Shown here: in pieces, positions 6,612 through 24,611 of the stretch | Numbering within the stretch: the stretch's first letter is position 1 | Layout of the letters: each line of letters begins with the position of its first letter | IMG/VR virus record: IMGVR_UViG_3300042934_000565 | Location: 1,028 to 65,027 of that record | Source: a virus | Lineage: Duplodnaviria > Caudoviricetes | Reading direction: 5' to 3' (one strand) | DNA length: 64,000 nt | The notes under the pieces: model-generated | The model's input: the letters and a program-made list of their open reading frames with translations, nothing else | Database searches by the model: none | What the model was told of the DNA's origin: nothing | Translations under genes and position numbers: made by a program

Positions 6612-8666
6612 TTATTTATCTACAACCAAGAACCACCTATTGCTACCGTCACTCAGTTGCTCGCGTTCCACGAGCTCATTGTCGAGATGACGGGCAAGCT
6701 GCTTGTGTACGGCCGAGCGAGTGATGCCTCGAGCCTCTGCGATGGCCTGGGTAGTCATCGGTCCCATCTCGAGAATCTCGAGCAGCTTATCCTTGGCTGA
6801 CTTCTCGCGACGAGGCTTCCATCCCCCGCCAGTTTCCTTGGTAGTTTCCTCGGGCTTGTCTTCAGACCAGGGGCTGATCATAGGTGACCACTCGAGGTTA
6901 CGCACGTTCTCCATGCGATAGGCATTACCCGGGATCGTCTTCGACTCTGTATCGAGCTTCAGGTGTTCGCCCCCAGTGTGACTGATGTAGATGCTATCTT
7001 CAGCCCATGCATGGTTTGCCACTGCCCCGAGCATGCGCTGGCCCGGGCGTGACTTCTCACCCTTGCTCATGTGGTGGATGACGATGACCGCGCAGTTATG
7101 CTTACGCGATAGAACCTTCAGCGGCCTGAAGATCTTGTTCGTCATCTCCTGAGACTTGTTCTCCTCGACATCGCCGGCGGTCATCATCAGCGTGTCAATG
7201 ATCAGCAGTTTGTAGGGTCTACCTGATAGCCCGTCAGAGAGCGTTTCGTCGAGCCACAACTGCCAGGCCTCGTCACTGATCGTGAACGACTTCTGGATGT
7301 AGGCCATGACGTCTGGGTCGAATGACTGTTCCTGATCTGGCGGCAGCCACCATACCCCAGCCCCGGACTCATCCTTGACTAGCTCGAACTTGTCGGTGGC
7401 TTTGTTGACCCAGATCTTTGCCGACCTGTTCTTGAGTGTTGCCGGCGGATCTTCTTCCTGGATATATAGGACAGGCCCGGGATCAACAACCCGAAAATGA
7501 CCGAGGAAATCAGCACCGGTAGCAACAGAAAAGGCCAGGTCGAGACCGAGCCAAGACTTGTAGGACTTAGGTTCACCAGCAATGAAACCACAAGCACCCT
7601 CCGTTAGAATTCCTTGGACGAGATACCGAGGCTTCTGAATGTTGCGGAGTAGGGCGCCCATTCGCTCCGGAGCTGGCCGGTCGACTGGTTCTTCTTCACC
7701 GCCCGTGCCCTCCAGCTTCTCGATCGTCTCGTCTGACCTCTTCGCAATAGCCTTGCTTGCTTCTGCAATGAGTCGCCGAAGTTCATCATGGCGGGTGTTG
7801 AACTTATTCCAAACAGTTTCCCGTACGATTGCGACGATCTCAGAGACGCTACATCCGACATCAGCAAGGCATCGGATGAGATACCAAAGCTTGTCAGACT
7901 TGTCCCCAGATGCTTCCTTGGCATTGAGCAACTCCCTTGCCGTGTGATTCAACTTGAGTCGAACTCGAGCGATGACTGCGAGCCTGTCCACACCATCGAT
8001 CTCGGTGCCCAGCGCCTCGGTCAGTTGGGTGGTACCGTGATTGACTTCAGGCAGCTCAGCGAAGTCGTTCAGCTCATACCGCGGTCCATCCACCCAGAGC
8101 ATCTTGCCCTTTGGTGACTTGCCCCTGTCTTCATACTCGAGCTTGTGATTGTCCCACCCCGGTATGCGAAGCAGCTGTGTCGTGTCCCAGCCCGAGTGAT
8201 CCGCGTTGACATGATAGGTCAGACGCTGGTTCTCATTGCCAGGCCACGAAGCACCACCGAAAGAACCCGAGCCCCGCTGTGCAAGCCAGAGTGCCTGATA
8301 GTGACCGGGGCTTGACTCCCAGGCGATCGTCGGCGGGTAATCATCGATGGTGTGGGGGTCTGCTTCATCGAGGTCAGCCCAGAGGGCGTACTCATCCATG
8401 GCAAAGCCCTCTTGCCGGACGGGGTACTCGAAGAGGTTGGGACACCAGTACAGATCGTGCTGGGTATGCGCGAGCATGTGATCAATGATCTGCTCACGTT
8501 CCTTCGGCCAAAGGAATGGGGGACCGTCGCTGTAACCCTTGCGCCTTTCGCCGGTACGTCGCTGAACCTCACGGTCGATGTAGGGGAAGAAGGCATACCC
8601 GCTCTGCCTCCCCCATGCCTGAGATATGATTCGAAGAGTCTTCTCGGCTTCAGCCTTACTTACCAT
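6612..8666 (-). CDS. Primase-helicase: RepB/AEP-type primase, RepA-like (AAA_25) helicase and C-terminal HTH
   Basis: LWADLD, ESSPGHYQALW, LLRIPG primase motifs; Walker A GEPKSYKS, Walker B LLIIDTL, VIHH. Confidence 0.9.
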   Translation of the reverse strand: MVSKAEAEKTLRIISQAWGRQSGYAFFPYIDREVQRRTGERRKGYSDGPPFLWPKEREQIIDHMLAHTQHDLYWCPNLFEYPVRQEGFAMDEYALWADLDEADPHTIDDYPPTIAWESSPGHYQALWLAQRGSGSFGGASWPGNENQRLTYHVNADHSGWDTTQLLRIPGWDNHKLEYEDRGKSPKGKMLWVDGPRYELNDFAELPEVNHGTTQLTEALGTEIDGVDRLAVIARVRLKLNHTARELLNAKEASGDKSDKLWYLIRCLADVGCSVSEIVAIVRETVWNKFNTRHDELRRLIAEASKAIAKRSDETIEKLEGTGGEEEPVDRPAPERMGALLRNIQKPRYLVQGILTEGACGFIAGEPKSYKSWLGLDLAFSVATGADFLGHFRVVDPGPVLYIQEEDPPATLKNRSAKIWVNKATDKFELVKDESGAGVWWLPPDQEQSFDPDVMAYIQKSFTISDEAWQLWLDETLSDGLSGRPYKLLIIDTLMMTAGDVEENKSQEMTNKIFRPLKVLSRKHNCAVIVIHHMSKGEKSRPGQRMLGAVANHAWAEDSIYISHTGGEHLKLDTESKTIPGNAYRMENVRNLEWSPMISPWSEDKPEETTKETGGGWKPRREKSAKDKLLEILEMGPMTTQAIAEARGITRSAVHKQLARHLDNELVEREQLSDGSNRWFLVVDK

Positions 8667-8935: not shown

Positions 8936-9137
8936 TTGGTAGTCCCTAGTGATGTGAGTGAGTACTTTGTATATGAGCCCTGAGGTGGCTCATCCCTACG
9001 ATCATATCGTCGAAATCTCGGGGAGGCAAATGCCTCAATCTCGGGTAAGGGCATACCGGAGTTTGATCCACTTATTCTCATGCATTATGATCGATATGCG
9101 CCCATCAATCGAGGGGCAATAACTAAAGGAGGTGCCA

Positions 9138-9716
9138 ATGGTAGAGTCAGGTCAGATCACAATTCGGGAGTTGCTCCGCGATCCCCAGTTCAAGGCCTAC
9201 TTCATCAAGGTTCCCAAGCTGCCCGACCATTATACGCCAGAAGCAGAACCCTGGCGCCTTTTGGTGGTGAAGCAGGGTGAGCATAAGTGGCGATCGAAGC
9301 GGTTCGGCACATACCAGGAGGCTTTCGCCGGGTTCAAGAAGATGCTGCCAGTCATCAGCGACGCGGCAATCAACTGCCCCGGCCTCAATTTTATGCCACC
9401 CACTCGCACCGTGAAGCTCAAGGGTCGCTTCGAAGTAGTCAAGGGCATTCAGAAGCCCGTTCTTCGCACCCTGGTATGGGCCCCCCGCCTTGAGGCTGAT
9501 ATGCCTCGGCATCATTGGTGCGGGTACTGCCGTCGGCCCACGGTATTCGTGAACAAGGGCATGCCCTCTCGGATGCTGAATGGTTTCACCCTACCGGCAA
9601 CGCGCGTTGCTTATCGCTGCAATGTATGCGGCTCGAGCGACGAAATCATGGATATTCGTAGTCCTGAGCTCAATCAGCAGTGGGATGTGAAGCGCCCCAG
9701 GTTGTATCGTGCCTGA
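9138..9716 (+). CDS. Hypothetical protein with C-terminal Zn ribbon
   Basis: AGGAGG RBS; WCGYCRRP...RCNVCG. Confidence 0.75.
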   Translation: MVESGQITIRELLRDPQFKAYFIKVPKLPDHYTPEAEPWRLLVVKQGEHKWRSKRFGTYQEAFAGFKKMLPVISDAAINCPGLNFMPPTRTVKLKGRFEVVKGIQKPVLRTLVWAPRLEADMPRHHWCGYCRRPTVFVNKGMPSRMLNGFTLPATRVAYRCNVCGSSDEIMDIRSPELNQQWDVKRPRLYRA

Positions 9717-9862
9717 TCTCCCACACCTGAGTATCGAGGAGCTCGAGTCGACGATCAGAGTGCTTGAAGTTATGCGCTCTTCAGAAGGTGAGCGGGCAAG
9801 CGCCTACCGGGTAGTTCTCACCGATGTACACCAAGTGATAAGAAATGCGAGAGATATCAGCG

Positions 9863-10087
9863 ATGGCCACTGAGCACTTTTGGGTCGAGATGAGCTATAT
9901 GCCCGTCTCGGTCGAGATAGATGAATCAACCGGGGACGTCACCATTCTTGCCGACGAAGGCGCGGATGAAGTGATGAAGGAGGAGGCCCTCCATGGCTGC
10001 TGGTTCTGCCATACACCCTTGAACACTGAGTCGGTCAAGACTGAGTGTGAAGGTCAGGACGCGGCAAAAGAAGTTGAAATAAGTTGA
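9863..10087 (+). CDS. Small hypothetical protein
   Basis: CWFC...C motif, acidic. Confidence 0.55.
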   Translation: MATEHFWVEMSYMPVSVEIDESTGDVTILADEGADEVMKEEALHGCWFCHTPLNTESVKTECEGQDAAKEVEIS

Positions 10088-10096
10088 AACCCCGCC

Positions 10097-10125
10097 TTGA
10101 CTTGAGAATGCCCCCCCGATAAGTT
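10097..10125 (+). promoter_or_regulatory. Probable promoter for HTH paralog 2 and the tRNA/ncRNA block
   Basis: TTGACT N17 TAAGTT. Confidence 0.6.
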
Positions 10126-10174
10126 AGTCATATCGCCCCGCGCGATGCCTGATAAATAAATGAGGAGAACAAGC

Positions 10175-10867
10175 ATGGGACTGAAGTACACTGAGGCAAG
10201 CCTCAAGAAGAAGTCGGTTGCCGATCTGAAGGAGCTGGCATCGGACCTCTTCGATGAGGACGAGCTCGACGAGATCACGACGAAGCAGCCGCTCATCGAC
10301 AAGCTGGTCGAAGTCGAGGACGACGAAGAAGTCGAGGAAGACGACGAGGTCGAGGAATCGGACGACGAGGAAGAGGTCGAAGAGGACGACGCCGACCCCG
10401 AGCTGCCCGATGAGGAGGAGGAGGACGAGGTCGACGAGCCCGCCCCCGCCAAGTCGAAGGCCGCAGCCAAGAAGCAGACGAAGTACACCGAAAGCGGCAA
10501 GGCCGACAACGGCGAAAAGCTGCTCGGGGCTAAGGAGGTCGCAACGGCCATCGGGACCGACGCCAAGTCGCTTCGTCAGTTCTTCCGCTCGGGCAAGTCG
10601 AGCTTCACCGCAGTGGGTGCCGGCGGCCGCTACGAGTTCAAGGAATCCGACGTCGAGAAGATCAAGTCGGAGTTCGAGACCTGGAAGGCCGGCAAGCCGG
10701 GCCGGGGTCGAGGCACCAGCGAGGGTGGCAGCACCCGGAGCCGCAGCACCACTCGGGGCCGCGAGGTGAAGCCCGAGGATCAGATCGAGGAAGTCGAAGA
10801 GATCGAAGAACTCGAGGACCTCGAAGAGCTGGACGAGGCCGACCTCGAGCTCGAAGAAGAGGACTGA
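10175..10867 (+). CDS. Acidic multi-domain DNA-binding protein with MerR/Xis-like HTH (paralog 2)
   Basis: LGAKEVATAIGTDAKSLRQFFR...GAGGRYEF; N-terminal KKKSVADLKELA; D/E tracts; AGGAG RBS. Confidence 0.8.
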   Translation: MGLKYTEASLKKKSVADLKELASDLFDEDELDEITTKQPLIDKLVEVEDDEEVEEDDEVEESDDEEEVEEDDADPELPDEEEEDEVDEPAPAKSKAAAKKQTKYTESGKADNGEKLLGAKEVATAIGTDAKSLRQFFRSGKSSFTAVGAGGRYEFKESDVEKIKSEFETWKAGKPGRGRGTSEGGSTRSRSTTRGREVKPEDQIEEVEEIEELEDLEELDEADLELEEED

Positions 10868-10871
10868 AGGA

Positions 10872-11269
10872 CTGGGCCCCTTGCGAGGATCAGCGCTAGG
10901 GGATAGGGTTATACCTGAACGACAGCACCGCTAACTAAGACGCTGCGCCCCTCCTCACAACTTAACATTGGTTCGACTAGGCGAACAGAAACAGATCTTA
11001 GGCCTAGTGCGGGTGGTCCCTTTAAGCTGGGGGCAACGGGGATAAGCGATCAAAGCCTGGAAGCGCCCCGCCACCGTGATAGACTCATCGCAGCTCCTCA
11101 TACCCTGGAGAGTCCCTGAGGTCGGTGGGTTGACTAACTCTAACCATGGTGATATCATCTAACTTAACATCGAACTGCCCCAAAGAGTGACCCGGGGTAG
11201 AGGTCCTGGTACAAAGGGTTCGGTTACGGACGACGGTTCGTATTCCATTAATGTACACGAGGGCCGCCC
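10872..11269 (+). ncRNA. Unassigned structured non-coding RNA(s) upstream of tRNA-Leu
   Basis: No credible ORF; stems ACTAGGC/GCCTAGT, CCTCA/TGAGG, GGTCCT..GTACA/TGTAC..AGGGCC. Confidence 0.45.
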
Positions 11270-11342
11270 ACCCCATTAGCCCAAAGGCAGAGGCAGTGGA
11301 CTTAAAATCCACTCAGTATCAGTTCGAATCTGATATGGGGTA
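11270..11342 (+). tRNA. tRNA-Leu (anticodon TAA), short variable arm, no encoded CCA
   Basis: Acceptor ACCCCAT/ATGGGGT; anticodon arm GTGGA-CTTAAAA-TCCAC; T arm ATCAG-TTCGAAT-CTGAT. Confidence 0.9.
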
Positions 11343-11551
11343 CGGCTAGTGATCTGGTACACGGCTTGCTTACAGAAACAAAGGCCAGCGAGGTTGTAAG
11401 GCTCCTCGGAAGTTAAACGCCCGGGAAAACGGCTTTTAGGGTAAGATTACGGGGCCGGGGTAAGGGTTTGGTTAGCCCCTAACAACTCAATAGGGTTGCA
11501 GGACAGGAAGCCCAGGATTTGCCATGGTGTATCCGAGTCTGAGAAACCCAT
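11343..11551 (+). ncRNA. Unassigned structured RNA(s) between the tRNAs
   Basis: GGTTGT...ACAACT-CAA and GGGTT...AACCC-A closing stems; no ORF. Confidence 0.4.
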
Positions 11552-11624
11552 TCCCAGTTAGCTTAGTTGGCAGAGCATCGGACTGTTAATCCGAGGGTCG
11601 GTGGTTCGAGCCCACCACTGGGAG
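11552..11624 (+). tRNA. tRNA-Asn (anticodon GTT)
   Basis: Acceptor TCCCAGT/ACTGGGA; anticodon arm TCGGA-CTGTTAA-TCCGA; T arm GGTGG-TTCGAGC-CCACC. Confidence 0.95.
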
Positions 11625-11772
11625 CAATAGGTTGTCGGTGACCAATGTAACCCAATGAGGAACCGTCAACAACTCAACATGGGCCTCAGGCGAGAGAAAG
11701 GCACACGCGCCGAGGAAAGCACGCCAGGGGTAGGGCCGCAGTGCCACTCGAGCGCCCCGGTAATAGTGAGTA

Positions 11773-11845
11773 GCCCCCGGGTGGGCCAAAGCGGCAGATG
11801 CAAAGTACTAGGAAATATTGCCCGGTTCAAATCCGGGGAGGTCCA
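11773..11845 (+). pseudogene. Degenerate tRNA-like element
   Basis: Perfect T arm CCCGG-TTCAAAT-CCGGG and a 3' CCA, TGCAAA upstream, but acceptor and anticodon stems are non-canonical. Confidence 0.35.
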
Positions 11846-11846
11846 C

Positions 11847-12122
11847 ATGGTGAATATCCATTGCAGCAACTGCCAGGGAGTCTTCGACTTTGACCACCCG
11901 TCAGTGCTATCAGCAGCAGATCTTTACAAAGTAACACTGACATGCGCATGGTGTGGGGTAGCTCTCAAGGCCCCGAGTGACGAGGTTTATATGATCACTC
12001 TCGATGAGTACACCCAGCGGGCACTCAAGCGACAAGGTCATCCTGGCTATCGCAGCACTGGCAATGGCTACGTACAACTTCTTCCCACACCGAAAGCCGC
12101 CGGAGACCCCAGCTCCGGTTGA
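11847..12122 (+). CDS. Zn-ribbon protein
   Basis: GGAGG RBS; HCSNC...TCAWCG. Confidence 0.7.
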   Translation: MVNIHCSNCQGVFDFDHPSVLSAADLYKVTLTCAWCGVALKAPSDEVYMITLDEYTQRALKRQGHPGYRSTGNGYVQLLPTPKAAGDPSSG

Positions 12123-12140
12123 GTCAGCCCACTGACTCCT

Positions 12141-12177
12141 ACTAGACCTCGACTCCCTCCCCTTGTCGAGGTCTAGT
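12141..12177. terminator. Hairpin between convergent units
   Basis: ACTAGACCTCGAC...GTCGAGGTCTAGT perfect 13 bp stem. Confidence 0.75.
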
Positions 12178-12260
12178 GGTGTGTCGCGTGTTCAGCTTCC
12201 CAGATCAATTGATCGATCGATGCGCGCATGATGATCAAGCATATCCTCAGGATGCCGAGA

Positions 12261-12572
12261 TTAAACCCTGGATTGCCGAGACCCTTTGCGCGCATCATTG
12301 CGCGACTTCGACTTCGAGGATTTTAGGTTTGATTCTGTCGACTTTTGCTCACGTAATAGACCGGCGGTTTCTCTCCGCTGATACTCTCGGAGCGCATCCA
12401 TCATGTAGTCTTCGCGCGAGGATTCAGGGGTACGCAAGCATTCGTATGCCATCTCGCGTAAGTTACTTTCGGTCAGACCTCGTGCCCAGGCCTCGCTCAG
12501 TTCAGCATAGCTGGGTTCACCCGCTGATGTAACTCGAGCGGCTGGGGCGGGACGATTCTCGGGACGGATCAC
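12261..12572 (-). CDS. Hypothetical protein
   Basis: Coupled by a 4-bp overlap to VRR-NUC. Confidence 0.55.
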   Translation of the reverse strand: MIRPENRPAPAARVTSAGEPSYAELSEAWARGLTESNLREMAYECLRTPESSREDYMMDALREYQRRETAGLLREQKSTESNLKSSKSKSRNDARKGSRQSRV

Positions 12573-18414: not shown

Positions 18415-20943
18415 CTATGCTGCCTTAGCATACTTGTATGACTGCTCGTATGCGTAGACCTGATCGTGGTAAAGTTCTACCTTGTCACCCCAGTGCTGAC
18501 CGACTGAGACATCTGCAACGATCGGGATATCGACCACCGTACCGAATCGCTTGTAAACATGGTGCATATCTTCCATGCTGTCCTTGATTATCGGCAGCAC
18601 TCGTGCGACGTAGTCGTCTCGAATCTCGAAGTTGATAGCGTCGTGCACCAAGCCAAGGCAGTGAGCGAACTGATCCCACCCGAGCTCACGAAGCTTTCGG
18701 TTAATCTCGATCATGGCGATGACTGCCAGGTCACTACCGAAGCCCTGTACCGGAGAGTTGATCGCCTGTCGCTCGGCTTCAGCGCGTACCCCCTGATCAG
18801 GCGAATAGATGTCGGGCAGATGACGAATGCGACCCAGGGGCGATACCACCCGGCCATATTTGTTGACCAGGCGTCGCTGCTTTGCGTGCCATGCGGGCAA
18901 CTTGGGGTAGAGGTCGAAGTATGCGATACGGGCTGCCTGAGCTTCCATCTCGGTGAAGATCGAGCCATAGCTACTGAAGGCAGTCTCGATGAACTTGCGC
19001 CAGCCCATGCCATAGAGGAAGCCGAAGTTAACCGGCTTACCGACTACCTTTCGAATCTCCTTGGTCACCTGAGATTCAGGCAGCCCAGTGACTCGAGCGG
19101 CAGTCATCAAGTGGATGTCGCCACCAGTAGCATAGATATGCTTCATCGTGGTTTCATCCGCCATGAATGCGGCGATCCTCAGCTCGATCTGGCTATAGTC
19201 AGCCTCCACGAATGTCCAGCCAGGCGGCGCCCCGAATAGACCCCGAATGAATGGATCTCTTGGTACCTGTTGAAGATTGACACCTCGCATCTTACCCCGA
19301 GAACCGGAGATCTTGTCTTCATCCGCTTTGCCAGAACTAAGACGTCCCGTAACGGTTCCTGCGAGTTTGAAGTTCGTGTGAATTCTATGGTTATCATCGT
19401 AGAGCTCCGAGTATGGGTTGAAGAACGAGCTGAGGTGCTTCTGCTTCGTAACTCTATCAAGCATACCCTGGAGGGCTTCATGCTTATACTCTGACTGAAG
19501 ATGCTTGATTACATCCTCTGCCATGCTCGGGTCACCAGGCGAGCCATCCTGCTTTACCTTGCCCCGTTCGAGCACTGGCATCTCGAGCCATTCGAACAGC
19601 ATCCATCGTGCGAACTTAGAGGCATTGAAGTTAACGGGTAGCGGCTTGCCCCTGGCATCGGTGGGCCATACATCCGCAGGCACCTTGTCAAGCTCGGCGG
19701 CAGCATATATGCGGGCCTCGACATCTGCCAGGTTCTGCTCGGCAATCGGCTTGCGTTCCTTCAGTCGCTTGACATCGATCCATGCCCCGCGTATCTCAGA
19801 GTCGATCAGGTCACGCTGTGCCGGCATCGTCTCGAACTTGAAAATACGGGCAAGTCGGGGTTCGGCCTTGAACTCCTCGACCAACTGTTGCTTCACCCAG
19901 TACATGTACCAGGTGTCGAGAACATTGTAGTGAAGAACTTCTTTGATCGGGTAGTTCAGCAGGTTGCCCGTGTCGATACCCCATGCCTCAACACCGAGGC
20001 GCGCCATCGCCTGAGGCTTGAGCCCTTTCTGCACGTTCTCATTGAGCAGGGCGATGGCGAGCATCGTATCGAAGGATGGATAAAGCTTAATCCCGCACCA
20101 GATCAACCACTTGCAATCGAAGGAGGCGTTGTGAGCAACCACCTTACGGATGCGCTTAACATGCCGGCCAATAAGGTCCAGGATATACTGCCAGCGACTA
20201 CGCCAAGGGGACTGGGGATGATATAGAGGTACAGCAAAGACAGTGCGACCCATGCTCCCGTCAGGCTTGCGTATAACGCAAGTAGCAGCAAGACTAACCA
20301 TTCTCGCCTCAGGCTCATAGTACTCACCGCCGTTCGTTTCGATGTCGATGTAGATTTCATCCGTCATCTCGAGGATGCGGAATACTTTCTTCAGTGTTTC
20401 CTTGGTATCCGCAATAAGATACTTGGGCTGAGGAAACTTGTTGTCGCGTTCGAGCACGCGGTTAGCGAATAGTCGGAGATCAGCAATGTATCCGGGGAGC
20501 TGCCCAGGGTTGCGATTGATAGCACTGGGAGAGAGGGTAGACATGACGTCAGAACCAAGGGCTTCGAAAAACTTGCCCCTATACTTGGTGATGCCTGACT
20601 TACCCACAACGGCTTGCAGAGCCTCATTTCCCAAACAAAGGATGTGCTTCCGCTTTCGGGTTTGTATCTCCGGGATGAGATACTTAGCCGCATGTTCCTT
20701 GAGCTGCCGTGTAGTAAGTGATGTATCGAACTCCCGGCACTTAATAACGGGGGTAAAGAGGATCTTCGATACGTCGAGCCCGAGTTCCTTGAGCTGGAGA
20801 TCGAGAGCATCTTGAAATCGTCCCGAGCTCTTTCTGTTAGTAACAACCACGACTTCAGCATCGAGAGGTCCCACTGAGAAGGATGATTGGTCATGGTTGC
20901 CACATACCTCGCAGATGTCGGGCAGGGTTGAAAGCTCAAGCAC
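18415..20943 (-). CDS. polA: Family A DNA polymerase with N-terminal UDG-like domain and 3'-5' exonuclease
   Basis: Exonuclease DIET, HNASFD, YNVLD; polymerase TGRLSS, ADYSQIELR, KPVNFGFLYG, VHD; probable leaderless GTG at 20943. Confidence 0.95.
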   Translation of the reverse strand: MLELSTLPDICEVCGNHDQSSFSVGPLDAEVVVVTNRKSSGRFQDALDLQLKELGLDVSKILFTPVIKCREFDTSLTTRQLKEHAAKYLIPEIQTRKRKHILCLGNEALQAVVGKSGITKYRGKFFEALGSDVMSTLSPSAINRNPGQLPGYIADLRLFANRVLERDNKFPQPKYLIADTKETLKKVFRILEMTDEIYIDIETNGGEYYEPEARMVSLAATCVIRKPDGSMGRTVFAVPLYHPQSPWRSRWQYILDLIGRHVKRIRKVVAHNASFDCKWLIWCGIKLYPSFDTMLAIALLNENVQKGLKPQAMARLGVEAWGIDTGNLLNYPIKEVLHYNVLDTWYMYWVKQQLVEEFKAEPRLARIFKFETMPAQRDLIDSEIRGAWIDVKRLKERKPIAEQNLADVEARIYAAAELDKVPADVWPTDARGKPLPVNFNASKFARWMLFEWLEMPVLERGKVKQDGSPGDPSMAEDVIKHLQSEYKHEALQGMLDRVTKQKHLSSFFNPYSELYDDNHRIHTNFKLAGTVTGRLSSGKADEDKISGSRGKMRGVNLQQVPRDPFIRGLFGAPPGWTFVEADYSQIELRIAAFMADETTMKHIYATGGDIHLMTAARVTGLPESQVTKEIRKVVGKPVNFGFLYGMGWRKFIETAFSSYGSIFTEMEAQAARIAYFDLYPKLPAWHAKQRRLVNKYGRVVSPLGRIRHLPDIYSPDQGVRAEAERQAINSPVQGFGSDLAVIAMIEINRKLRELGWDQFAHCLGLVHDAINFEIRDDYVARVLPIIKDSMEDMHHVYKRFGTVVDIPIVADVSVGQHWGDKVELYHDQVYAYEQSYKYAKAA

Positions 20944-20949
20944 GATTGT

Positions 20950-20979
20950 ATTATACCACCTTCGAACTCGAGAGGTCAA
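20950..20979 (-). promoter_or_regulatory. SigA-type promoter for the polymerase (leaderless)
   Basis: TTGACC N18 TATAAT, 7 nt before the GTG. Confidence 0.75.
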
Positions 20980-23482: not shown

Positions 23483-24072
23483 GCCTGCACCGCCTTGTAG
23501 AGACCGTCGGTCACTGAGCAGTGGAAGAACCGAGTACCCTCGGCTGACATGGGGTACGAGCGAAGCAGATTCTCGTGCTCCTCACCCTCGTACATGTAGC
23601 AGAAGACAGCGGCATCGTCGAGGGCCCGCTTACAGCCAGGGCACTTGGTGCTGACCCCGTCGTAACCCTCCTCCTGTCGCTTCTCGTTCTTCTTGTGCTT
23701 GTTGTCGTAGGCGAGCTTGACCGATTCTGCATCCATGCCCAGCCCCAGGAAGATGTTGAGCAGGAAGTGCAGAGCATCGATGGCCTCACCCTGTGCGGCC
23801 TCGAGATTGATGTGCCGGGACTTGGCCCAGGGCTTCCACCCGATTTCGCCCAGCAGCTCATGCAGCTCGTCGGTCAGGGCGGTGACGTTCCAGTGAAGGA
23901 AATCGATCAGCGGCTTGCGATCTTCATCGGTGTTCTCGTAGTTGCCCTCCTCATCAAGAAGCGCGAACTCGGGAGAGTCGAAGGCGTTGAGGAAGAGATT
24001 AATCGGGTGCGGCGATGGCATCTTCCCCTGAAGCTCGCTCTGCTGATCGAGGAAGTACTGGAGGGTGGTCAT
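23479..24072 (-). CDS. All-alpha NTP pyrophosphatase (dimeric dUTPase/dCTPase, MazG superfamily) with Cys-rich C-terminus
   Basis: DELHELL..WKPW, EAIDALHF, YDNKHKKNEKRQEEGY. Confidence 0.9.
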   Translation of the reverse strand: MTTLQYFLDQQSELQGKMPSPHPINLFLNAFDSPEFALLDEEGNYENTDEDRKPLIDFLHWNVTALTDELHELLGEIGWKPWAKSRHINLEAAQGEAIDALHFLLNIFLGLGMDAESVKLAYDNKHKKNEKRQEEGYDGVSTKCPGCKRALDDAAVFCYMYEGEEHENLLRSYPMSAEGTRFFHCSVTDGLYKAVQA

Positions 24073-24611
24073 AGGAAAGCCCTTTCCTGAGCTCGGTTGA
24101 GTGGGAGGTAAAGAGGACCGAGAGGGTCTCGATCGCTCCAGACAGTGTAGTCATAGACGACAGCGCCGGCATGAATCACGTCGAGGGAGGCCCGCTGAAG
24201 GTATGCCGTGTACAGCTGTTCGACATGATCCCACACCGCGCGATTCGTTTCGTCGCCCGCGATGTTCATCTTCACTACGCTGAGCGGTGGCAGGCAGTAG
24301 ATGATGATCGGCTTTAGCTGGTAGAATCGACGAAGCGAACCATGTACCCAAGCTGGAGAAGTGAAGCCCGCTCGTTGCTCCTTGCGGAGTACGGGGCCGT
24401 AGATGAACTCGCTGATGAGTCGGTATCGATCAAAGAGGGTGTACTGGAATCCCTCAGCAAGATTCTGATCGACCCACTGCTGAAGATCGACCAGGTCGTT
24501 CGTCTCTTTGCTCACCACTCGAGGAGCGACCGTCAGATCGGGGTAAGCGTCGAGGATGTTCTTGATCAGGGTTGTCTTGCCCGAGCCGTCAGGGCCTTCG
24601 ACGATGATCAT
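24069..24611 (-). CDS. dNMP/thymidylate kinase-like protein
   Basis: IIVEGPDGSGKTT, FDRYRLISEFIYG. Confidence 0.9.
   Translation of the reverse strand: MIIVEGPDGSGKTTLIKNILDAYPDLTVAPRVVSKETNDLVDLQQWVDQNLAEGFQYTLFDRYRLISEFIYGPVLRKEQRAGFTSPAWVHGSLRRFYQLKPIIIYCLPPLSVVKMNIAGDETNRAVWDHVEQLYTAYLQRASLDVIHAGAVVYDYTVWSDRDPLGPLYLPLNRAQERAFL

Follow-up and report, generated by a model that had tools for sequence, protein, structure and literature searches.

The RNA-rich block and its neighbours

The DNA analysed here (hereafter the window) is a stretch of 64,000 nucleotides, nearly all of a 65,027-base virus record of IMG/VR (IMGVR_UViG_3300042934_000565) that has direct terminal repeats and is rated complete. 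At the end of a rightward gene set, between a gene for a helix-turn-helix (HTH) protein and a gene for a small Zn-ribbon-like protein, the window holds a non-coding block (10868-11846) with two transfer RNA (tRNA) genes, a predicted pistol self-cleaving ribozyme, a conserved pseudoknotted element (hereafter unit 2), a tRNA-like RNA placed directly against the next gene, several hairpins and four copies of a 12-nucleotide (nt) motif (Table 1). We read the block as a modular RNA island that would be transcribed and then cut into separate RNAs, and we give this reading as a whole a probability of about 0.6.

The DNA polymerase I of the window is 69-72% identical to those of the Microbacterium phages Huwbert and Triscuit and of the Curtobacterium phage Shrew. 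Triscuit is described as a lytic siphovirus with a 67.5-kb genome, a G+C content of 58.3%, terminal repeats and one annotated tRNA (PMC7302621). The source phage is a complete 65-kb, lytic Triscuit/Huwbert-like phage of Microbacteriaceae, from soil.

An earlier examination of the letters and open reading frames (ORFs) of the window (hereafter the sequence-only reading) had taken the block to be non-coding, and this was borne out. None of its five ORFs (64-75 amino acids) matched a PHROG family. Soil variants were compared with the window as DNA contigs from four sequencing runs (the comparison is incomplete and draws on the 40 of 59 substitutions and 12 of 16 indels listed); a close variant carries indels of +1, -2 and -1 within 11687-11820 that break the sole frame entering the Zn-ribbon gene. 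Coding readings of the block were therefore dropped. One of the variant contigs, X3, covers the entire block, with 56 substitutions and 12 gaps over 1,100 nt. It is worth noting that the open frame 11655-12122 passes through the tRNA-like RNA into the Zn-ribbon gene and is the one disrupted by these indels; its upstream part is most likely non-coding. In a blastn search of the whole block against 50,697 phage records, the two tRNAs were the only matches. ARAGORN and Rfam placed both tRNAs, labelled Leu(taa) and Asn(gtt), where the sequence-only reading had seen them.

Table 1. Features in and around the non-coding block, in order of position (all positions are those of the window).
Feature	Position	Strand	Description or basis
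HTH gene	10160-10867	+	235 amino acids, acidic; left neighbour of the block
Promoter-like site	10881-10909	+	TTGCGA, 17-nt spacer, TAGGGT; putative, read by eye
Motif copy 1	10957-10968	+	ACAACTTAACAT; ends 2 nt ahead of pistol P1
Pistol self-cleaving ribozyme (predicted)	10971-11081	+	Rfam RF02679; helices checked base by base
Pistol P1	10971-75 / 10982-86	+	5 base pairs (bp)
Pistol pseudoknot	10976-81 / 11003-08	+	6 pairs, all Watson-Crick
Pistol P2	10995-97 / 11078-80	+	3 pairs and a G/A mismatch
Pistol conserved bases	UUAGG 10998-11002; GCG 11009-11011	+	align to the RF02679 consensus
Pistol P3	11012-17 / 11070-75	+	encloses a 52-nt insert
Pistol favoured cleavage step (predicted)	G11076/U11077	+	GU between P3 and the 3' strand of P2
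Sigma-70-like promoter (putative)	11130-11158	+	TTGACT, 17-nt spacer, TG then TATCAT; 10 of 12 positions match
Motif copy 2	11159-11170	+	CTAACTTAACAT
Two hairpins ahead of tRNA(UAA)	11175-11200, 11202-11265	+	minimum-free-energy fold, z -1.43
tRNA, anticodon UAA (labelled Leu)	11270-11343	+	74 nt; ARAGORN; Rfam tRNA model, 57.8 bits
Unit 2	11344-11420	+	conserved 77-nt pseudoknotted element directly after A73-C of tRNA(UAA)
Motif copy 3	11482-11493	+	ACAACTCAATAG
Hairpin unit GGGUU/AACCC	11493-11550	+	58 nt, directly before tRNA-Asn; minimum-free-energy fold of 11421-11551, z -0.34
tRNA-Asn(GUU)	11552-11625	+	ARAGORN and Rfam
Spacer hairpin GGUU..CGGU / ACCG..AACA	11630-11674	+	-13.1 kcal/mol, z -1.52
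Motif copy 4	11669-11680	+	ACAACTCAACAT; abuts the 5' end of the tRNA-like RNA
tRNA-like RNA	11681-11846	+	descriptor scan, minimum-free-energy fold, synteny with L002
Small Zn-ribbon-like gene	11847-12122	+	91 amino acids, two CxxC pairs (CxxC ... CxxC); right neighbour of the block

A pistol ribozyme at the head of the block

The sequence-only reading had suggested Rfam and ARAGORN as a check. Beyond the two tRNAs, Rfam found a pistol ribozyme, with a score of 38.9 bits against a cut-off of 34.5 for RF02679, at 10971-11018. The class is described as having three stems, a 6-bp pseudoknot, a purine at position 32, and G40 and G42 (PMC6154101). The element in the window has the stem P1 of RF02679, whose loop pairs with the P2-P3 junction in a 6-bp pseudoknot, as well as the purine and G that precede this pseudoknot and the GCG that follows it; the above-cut-off score and the phage context also agree. 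The order of P3, GU and the 3' strand of P2 can be drawn too, with an insert in P3 and a weak P2. In a relative (L003) the same model scored 41.9 bits at the syntenic position, immediately behind the homologous HTH gene's stop codon, and the ribozyme there is complete: a 5-bp P1, a 6-bp pseudoknot, GCG, a 12-bp P3, GU and a 4-bp P2. The helices of both were drawn by eye and then verified by a script. P1, the pseudoknot and P2 offer 15 pairs that can be compared between the two, of which 6 are changed on both sides and still paired (two in P1, three in the pseudoknot and one in P2). In variant X3, P1 has lost a base on its 5' strand and shows an insertion and a loss on its 3' side, and a 4-bp helix remains. 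An alignment further showed an 18-nt block, at 11111-11128 on the + strand of the window, that is common to the window and the region downstream of the L003 pistol.

These facts make it very probable, from the sequence, that 10971-11081 belongs to the pistol class. The RNA is predicted to cleave itself, most likely between G11076 and U11077. The G-U step between P3 and P2 is described as only modestly conserved in the class (PMC6154101). Of five relatives whose whole records were searched with the pistol model, only L003 gave a match.

The class is described as common in Firmicutes and near phage genes (PMC6154101). Unlike usual pistols, the element in the window belongs to a phage of an Actinobacteria-type host, heads a tRNA array, has a 3-pair P2 and an insert in P3, and has a close variant with A at the cleavage-site G. 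None of the papers listed in a literature search on pistol self-cleaving RNAs names an actinobacteriophage. The pistol of the window adds a new member to a known class, in a host group and a context that are unusual for it.

To our knowledge, pistol ribozymes have no known biological role. The pistol of the window stands at a defined position, with a message on one side and a tRNA array on the other, and its phage group has cultured relatives on Microbacterium foliorum, so that its role can be tested. A self-cleavage test in vitro, which had been suggested for the block, is apt since one of the units is a pistol ribozyme.

In L003 the pistol is followed by about 200 nt of non-coding sequence (6694-6900) without a tRNA, which ends at a strong hairpin with a U and an A run (about 6897-6940) between convergent genes. 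This sequence may be a small RNA freed by the ribozyme.

A conserved pseudoknotted element after tRNA(UAA)

The variable loop of the tRNA with anticodon UAA is short, and no CCA is encoded. Bacterial leucine tRNAs normally carry a long variable loop; the amino-acid identity of this tRNA is therefore uncertain. Resembling tRNAs are labelled Leu in Pseudomonas phage 16Q.

Unit 2 follows directly. Its counterpart in the relative L001 (6704-6779, or 6702-6779 in the alignment of 79 columns) is 89.9% identical and also starts after A73-C, but of a different, tRNA-like RNA. The flanks on both sides are unalignable between the window and L001. In the structure, which was drawn by eye, positions 1-3 pair with positions 25-27 in a 3-bp helix, and the loop CUGGUA of a GUG/CAC hairpin pairs with a downstream GCCAG (11384-88) to form the pseudoknot. 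A 12-nt A-rich strand comes next, and then a CGAGG/CCUCG hairpin, the loop of which is the sole variable stretch; the tail GAAGUUAAACGC is invariant. At the pair 1:27 the window has G·U, L001 has G-C and variant X3 has A-U, and the pseudoknot has an extra A-U pair in L001. Pattern scans of IMG/VR for further copies returned the L001 contig only. The other loci from these scans were coding or AT-rich and were judged to be chance matches.

We infer that unit 2 acts in cis on the tRNA's 3' end, as a maturation or protective element. Theta ribozymes, which are minimal HDV-like ribozymes that adjoin phage tRNAs at their 3' ends (PMC10879173), provide the nearest comparison. Like the theta ribozymes described there, unit 2 starts no more than 1-2 bases from the 3' end of CCA-less phage tRNAs. 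Unlike them, it has no HDV-family match, neither a nested double pseudoknot (P1/P1.1/P3) nor a catalytic C was found in it, its phage comes from soil and not from the gut, and cleavage is a candidate property only. When unit 2 was threaded by eye onto a theta/HDV-like fold, there was no P1 partner for 11344-50 and no P1.1, and the layouts of the pistol, a permuted pistol, hatchet and the hairpin ribozyme did not fit either.

Unit 2 might nevertheless be a self-cleaving ribozyme of a new kind, or a much altered relative of the pistol, that cuts the tRNA 3' end as RNase Z does; we consider this quite unlikely. The element begins right after A73-C of two different tRNA-type RNAs and shows by eye a pistol-like layout (a hairpin loop that pairs downstream, an A-rich strand and a hairpin). 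The pistol itself is 270 nt away, and ribozymes reportedly cluster, as Weinberg et al. are said to have found in 2015. Theta ribozymes of gut phages give a positional precedent (PMC10879173). On the other side, the 165 nt from 11336 to 11500, searched alone at E <= 10, matched no Rfam family. At the same threshold the hatchet, twister, twister-sister, hammerhead and hairpin models found nothing in unit 2, either in 10700-12300 or in 11336-11500, and nothing in the hairpin units in 10700-12300; the HDV-family models did not match unit 2 at E <= 10 either, and it is uncertain whether Rfam has a theta-specific model. Just three near-identical copies are known, and a Pfam scan of 30 ORFs of the window detected no RNA repair or CCA-adding enzyme, the sole hint being a weak AAA_33 match below cut-off in 24069-24611. 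A cis-acting trailer is the preferred reading of unit 2.

The units had also been proposed as decoys. The tail of unit 2 contains GUUAA, which is the anticodon and the 3' side of the loop of tRNA-Asn, and tRNA-Asn is the unit that this phage group keeps. The extra units might then be decoys or spare parts against anticodon nucleases of the host. This is very unlikely, as GUUAA is not displayed in a stable stem-loop and the tRNA-like RNAs have no anticodon loop.

A tRNA-like RNA against the next gene

The last unit of the block bears out the suggestion that a tRNA mimic is among the units. Its acceptor stem pairs GGGCCUC (11681-11687) with GAGGUCC (11838-11844) in 7 bp, including G3·U70. Directly before the 3' strand of the acceptor lies a T arm of 5 bp (11821-25 / 11833-37) with the loop UUCAAAU. 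The 3' end is A73 at 11845 and C at 11846, and the AUG of the Zn-ribbon gene follows at 11847. Where a tRNA has its D and anticodon arms there are about 130 nt. Both the acceptor stem and the T arm are retained in the minimum-free-energy fold. A GGAGG lies five bases ahead of the AUG and is hidden in the stems of the T arm and the acceptor, and the acceptor change listed among the variants (11685 C>T) keeps its pair.

A descriptor was built from a T arm with the loop UUCRANY and, immediately after it, a 7-nt strand able to pair with a 7-mer lying 40-220 nt upstream. It found only three places on both strands of the 64 kb, namely the two tRNAs and this RNA; the mean in 100 shuffles was 0.01. 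The same descriptor found six further tRNA-like RNAs, in L001, L002, Huwbert, L024, SallyK and Hubbs, of which the one in Huwbert is annotated as tRNA-Ser and those in SallyK and Hubbs carry no annotation. Among the seven, G3·U70 is present in six and A73-C in all. In L002 the RNA is syntenic and also stops a single base short of the homologous gene's AUG. The tRNA model of Rfam matched five of the six RNAs of the relatives at 40.6-49.6 bits, with a large insertion, and ARAGORN with introns allowed gave inconsistent anticodons for them. L001 shares the whole 120-nt form with SallyK, Nike and Hubbs at about 78% identity, and the long inserted arm shows compensatory changes. The RNA of the window has in common with these forms only the plan of the acceptor and the T arm.

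The RNA is not a canonical tRNA: it has no anticodon arm, ARAGORN made no call even with introns allowed and a lowered threshold, and the Rfam tRNA model did not match 11681-11846, where the only match was tRNA-Sec at 16.8 bits over a shifted stretch. G3·U70 is the identity determinant for alanine, and transfer-messenger RNA (tmRNA) lacks a normal D arm. The RNA resembles the tRNA-Ala acceptor and the tRNA-like domain of tmRNA in its 7-bp acceptor with G3·U70, its A73 and its standard T arm and loop, and it resembles tmRNA in the large domain inserted between acceptor and T arm. It differs from tmRNA in that neither ARAGORN nor Rfam reports a tmRNA, no convincing tag frame is present and the RNAs of the relatives have a normal D arm. 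The tmRNA reading was rejected on the negative results of the two programs; candidate tag frames read by eye, moreover, do not end in hydrophobic residues.

We infer that RNase P and the enzymes acting on tRNA 3' ends process 11681-11846 at its tRNA-type ends and in this way define where the Zn-ribbon message begins. In mitochondria messages are punctuated by tRNAs, and tRNA-like ends of the mascRNA type are processed likewise. The window resembles tRNA punctuation in that a tRNA-shaped element stands directly against an ORF and tRNA enzymes would define the ends; unlike the punctuation and mascRNA cases, the element lies upstream of an AUG, in a phage of Gram-positive bacteria. In these phages tRNA-like RNAs recur upstream of genes; they would give a phage a new means of setting message ends or of engaging alanyl-tRNA synthetase.

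SallyK (L053 1201-1323), Hubbs (L054 1198-1320) and also Nike carry 123-nt tRNA-shaped RNAs about 25 nt upstream of a gene start, with normal acceptor, D and T arms and three hairpins in place of the anticodon and variable region. At about 1535-1635 of L025 there is a second, less regular tRNA-like RNA; its acceptor-type stem has 8 bp, its T arm contains one mismatch and it ends in A-C. A copy of the leader motif lies inside it, which suggests a nested insertion.

The repeated motif, the leader and the promoter-like sites

The four copies of a motif with the core AACTYAA that had been noticed in the block were found again at 10957, 11159, 11482 and 11669. The string AACTYAAYA occurs 7 times in the window against 0.65 expected, a number reached in 0 of 100 shuffles, and four of the 7 occurrences are on the + strand within the block. 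Among the collected loci, ACAACTNNAYAK is present in L020 (the copy of the window itself) and in 3 of the 42 others, namely Huwbert, Triscuit and L025, where its last base is at -1 of tRNA-Asn, so that the motif occupies -12 to -1. Since it adjoins the 5' end of tRNA-Asn in three relatives, we read the motif, ACAACUYAAYAK, as a putative leader kept with each cassette. Its position fits processing at tRNA-type 5' ends, at the place of the RNase P cut. With A at -4 and U or G at -1, a leader preference of RNase P, the motif may be tuned for this enzyme.

The leader of the block (10868-10961), which contains the promoter-like site at 10881-10909, is 80.6% identical over 98 aligned columns to L025 1102-1193. 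In L025, leader and motif are followed at once by tRNA-Asn. Compared with L025, the window thus holds about 590 nt of extra cassettes, each with a copy of the motif. The sequence-only reading had proposed a polycistronic precursor cut by tRNA-processing enzymes; the additional RNA genes and the motif at -12 to -1 of tRNA-Asn speak for it, and the support is partial.

A sigma-70-like consensus scan of 9000-12400 gave 4 sites against 1.0 expected. The best site of the region is the one at 11130-11158, and its predicted start lies inside motif copy 2.

Other repeats and pairings that had been pointed out fared less well. That ACAGAAACA and CTGGTACA each occur twice is weak evidence, not clearly above chance: the block has 7 repeated 9-mers where shuffles give 2.1, a number as high as 7 arises in 10 of 300 shuffles, and the motif itself makes up 4 of the 7. 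The pairing of GGTTGT (11392) with ACAACT (11482) is not conserved in L001, the one relative with this region, where the place of GGTTGT is the variable loop of a hairpin; nor are the acceptor-like stems GGTTGT/ACAACT in general.

Hairpins and the possibility of debris

The stems proposed at 11202-11265, 11493-11550 and 11630-11674 are all present in minimum-free-energy folds; the 3' strand of the last continues into motif copy 4. In the two hairpins ahead of tRNA(UAA), four of the five listed variant changes at paired sites (11238, 11239, 11255 and 11263) keep the pair and one (11252) breaks a terminal pair. This is weak support, since transitions often preserve pairs. No homologue of the hairpin at 11493-11550 was found. 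The impression that the block is rich in stems was not upheld thermodynamically: the z-scores of eight segments range from -1.52 to +1.62 and are not above chance.

It might be argued that only the two tRNAs, and perhaps the pistol, are functional and that the rest is debris of repeated recombination at a hot spot, made up of decayed tRNA genes, duplicated leaders and chance hairpins. The ordinary z-scores agree with this explanation, as does the high variability of the locus among relatives, and the tRNA-like RNAs lack an anticodon loop, as pseudogenes might. The spacers had been expected to show conservation in relatives if they were functional; conservation was found for the leader (in L025) and for unit 2 (in L001), and most spacer sequence has no homologue in 27 related loci. 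Debris would not, however, account for the retention of unit 2 at 90% identity while its flanks diverged beyond alignment. Nor does it explain why tRNA-like RNAs with an intact acceptor and T arm recur in 7 phages, why the 120-nt form has kept its identity among L001, SallyK, Nike and Hubbs with compensatory changes in the long arm, or why the A73-C-AUG junction is kept in two divergent phages. We regard debris as unlikely.

Independent assortment of the units among relatives

The units occur separately in the related phages. L025 shares with the window only the leader, the motif and tRNA-Asn; L001 has only unit 2 and tRNA-Asn in common with it, and L003, of the units, only the pistol. L004 has no RNA block, and its Zn-ribbon gene comes directly after the HTH gene. 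The tRNA-Asn is common to the five genomes of the group that have an RNA block here, namely the window, L001, L021 (Huwbert), L022 (Triscuit) and L025. A metagenome scan with the HTH protein gave 20 loci, of which L024, L025 and L026 (the same contig as L002) alone have tRNA-type RNAs.

This bears on the suggestion that a single large structured RNA akin to GOLLD or ROOL makes up the block. The size of about 1 kb, the absence of coding sequence and the place beside tRNAs are as expected for such an RNA. The relatives, however, carry the units separately or not at all; as the units assort independently, the block is not a single large RNA. A promoter-like site lies inside the block, and no match to GOLLD, ROOL, Y RNA or HDV-like families was found at the Rfam cut-off in the 64 kb or at E <= 10 in the block. 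We consider one large RNA extremely improbable.

With relaxed thresholds, Rfam found only tRNA and pistol in the window, L001, L003 and the loci of six relatives. Two further structured RNAs were seen in the relatives. One, which we call unit 7, lies directly after the 3' end of a tRNA or tRNA-like RNA in L021 (4541-4700), L022 (4331-4490) and L025 (1279-1400). Its first hairpin shows covariation, the segments CCCGGAAAU and GGUCGGG are conserved, GAAAU is also present, and no Rfam family matched it at E <= 1. The other is an element of about 115 nt after tRNA-Asn in L001 (6934-7045) and Huwbert (L021 4333-4445), with about 90% identity, four-way-junction-like stems and one compensatory change (CCGC/GCGG vs CCGG/CCGG); it sits ahead of the ribosome-binding site of the next gene. 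Since the relatives carry other conserved RNAs abutting tRNA 3' ends, the locus is a general hot spot for structured RNAs.

A proposed RNA island cut into separate RNAs

The modular island is the explanation we favour. Lying at the end of the rightward operon, it would most likely give one or two precursors, starting from the promoter-like sites at about 10881-10909 and 11130-11158. The pistol would cut itself, most likely at the step between G11076 and U11077, and so detach the downstream RNA from the message and leader ahead of it; one of the new ends would carry a 2',3'-cyclic phosphate and the other a 5'-OH. The next cassette would comprise two hairpins and tRNA(UAA), with unit 2 as a conserved pseudoknotted 3' trailer acting in cis on the tRNA 3' end, and would be followed by a hairpin and tRNA-Asn. 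The last unit would be the tRNA-like RNA, with acceptor features of the alanine type and no anticodon arm, the processing of which would set the 5' end of the next message. The 12-nt motif would serve as the cassette leader at the RNase P cut place.

Several observations weigh against this explanation. Among the 8 sequencing runs that contain the stretch, none is recorded as RNA, and every transcript, cut and end proposed here is therefore a reading of DNA. Unit 2 was seen in three close genomes only, so that its structure is backed by very few informative changes. The P2 of the pistol is weak, its P3 insert is unusual, and variants X3 and X4 have A, not G, at the favoured cleavage site. The Infernal alignment omits P3 in both the window and L003 and puts the GU of the window at 11013-14; a cut between 11013 and 11014 without P3 is thought unlikely, because the pistol fold requires P3. 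The promoter-like site at 10881-10909 was read by eye and was not listed by the consensus promoter scan, and the evidence for the one at 11130-11158 is its match to the consensus alone. The tRNA-like RNA of Hubbs lacks G3·U70, while the interior of the one in the window has neither a supported fold nor sequence similarity to the interiors of its relatives. The ordinary fold energies of the eight segments are to be counted here as well.

The cluster of phage T4 includes stable small RNAs besides its tRNAs, and the island resembles it in having small RNAs that would be cotranscribed with tRNAs and stable. The island as a whole is a new variant of the known phage tRNA clusters with attached ribozymes. 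New ribozyme classes were earlier found by searching beside known ones; this makes concrete candidates of unit 2 and of those RNAs of the relatives that adjoin a tRNA 3' end. A bolder version would make the island an RNA-only machinery for making ends, with unit 2 a new self-cleaving class or a far-diverged pistol relative that replaces RNase Z, the tRNA-like RNA as punctuation and the abutting RNAs of Huwbert, Triscuit and L025 as further classes. We hold this version to be rather improbable. If it were true, an alanine-type tRNA-like RNA would make the tRNA enzymes of the host excise a near-leaderless message for the next gene.

Neighbouring genes and other observations

The HTH protein has a MerR-like match and a match to the PHROG category 'excisionase and transcriptional regulator'. 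At position 10865, a T>C change in variants X3 and X4 alters the first base of its stop codon, and the gene would there continue for 13 more codons, up to the in-frame stop that comes next (TAG, 10904-10906). A pattern search of IMG/VR with the Zn-ribbon protein returned no relative; homologues of its gene were read in L002 and L004. A long near-perfect hairpin at 12134-12185, between the Zn-ribbon gene and the convergent leftward genes, is probably a two-way terminator, and a weak Rfam match to mir-9223 at the same place was judged spurious. The DNA polymerase I (18415-20979, - strand) has an N-terminal match to the uracil-DNA glycosylase superfamily beside its exonuclease and polymerase domains.

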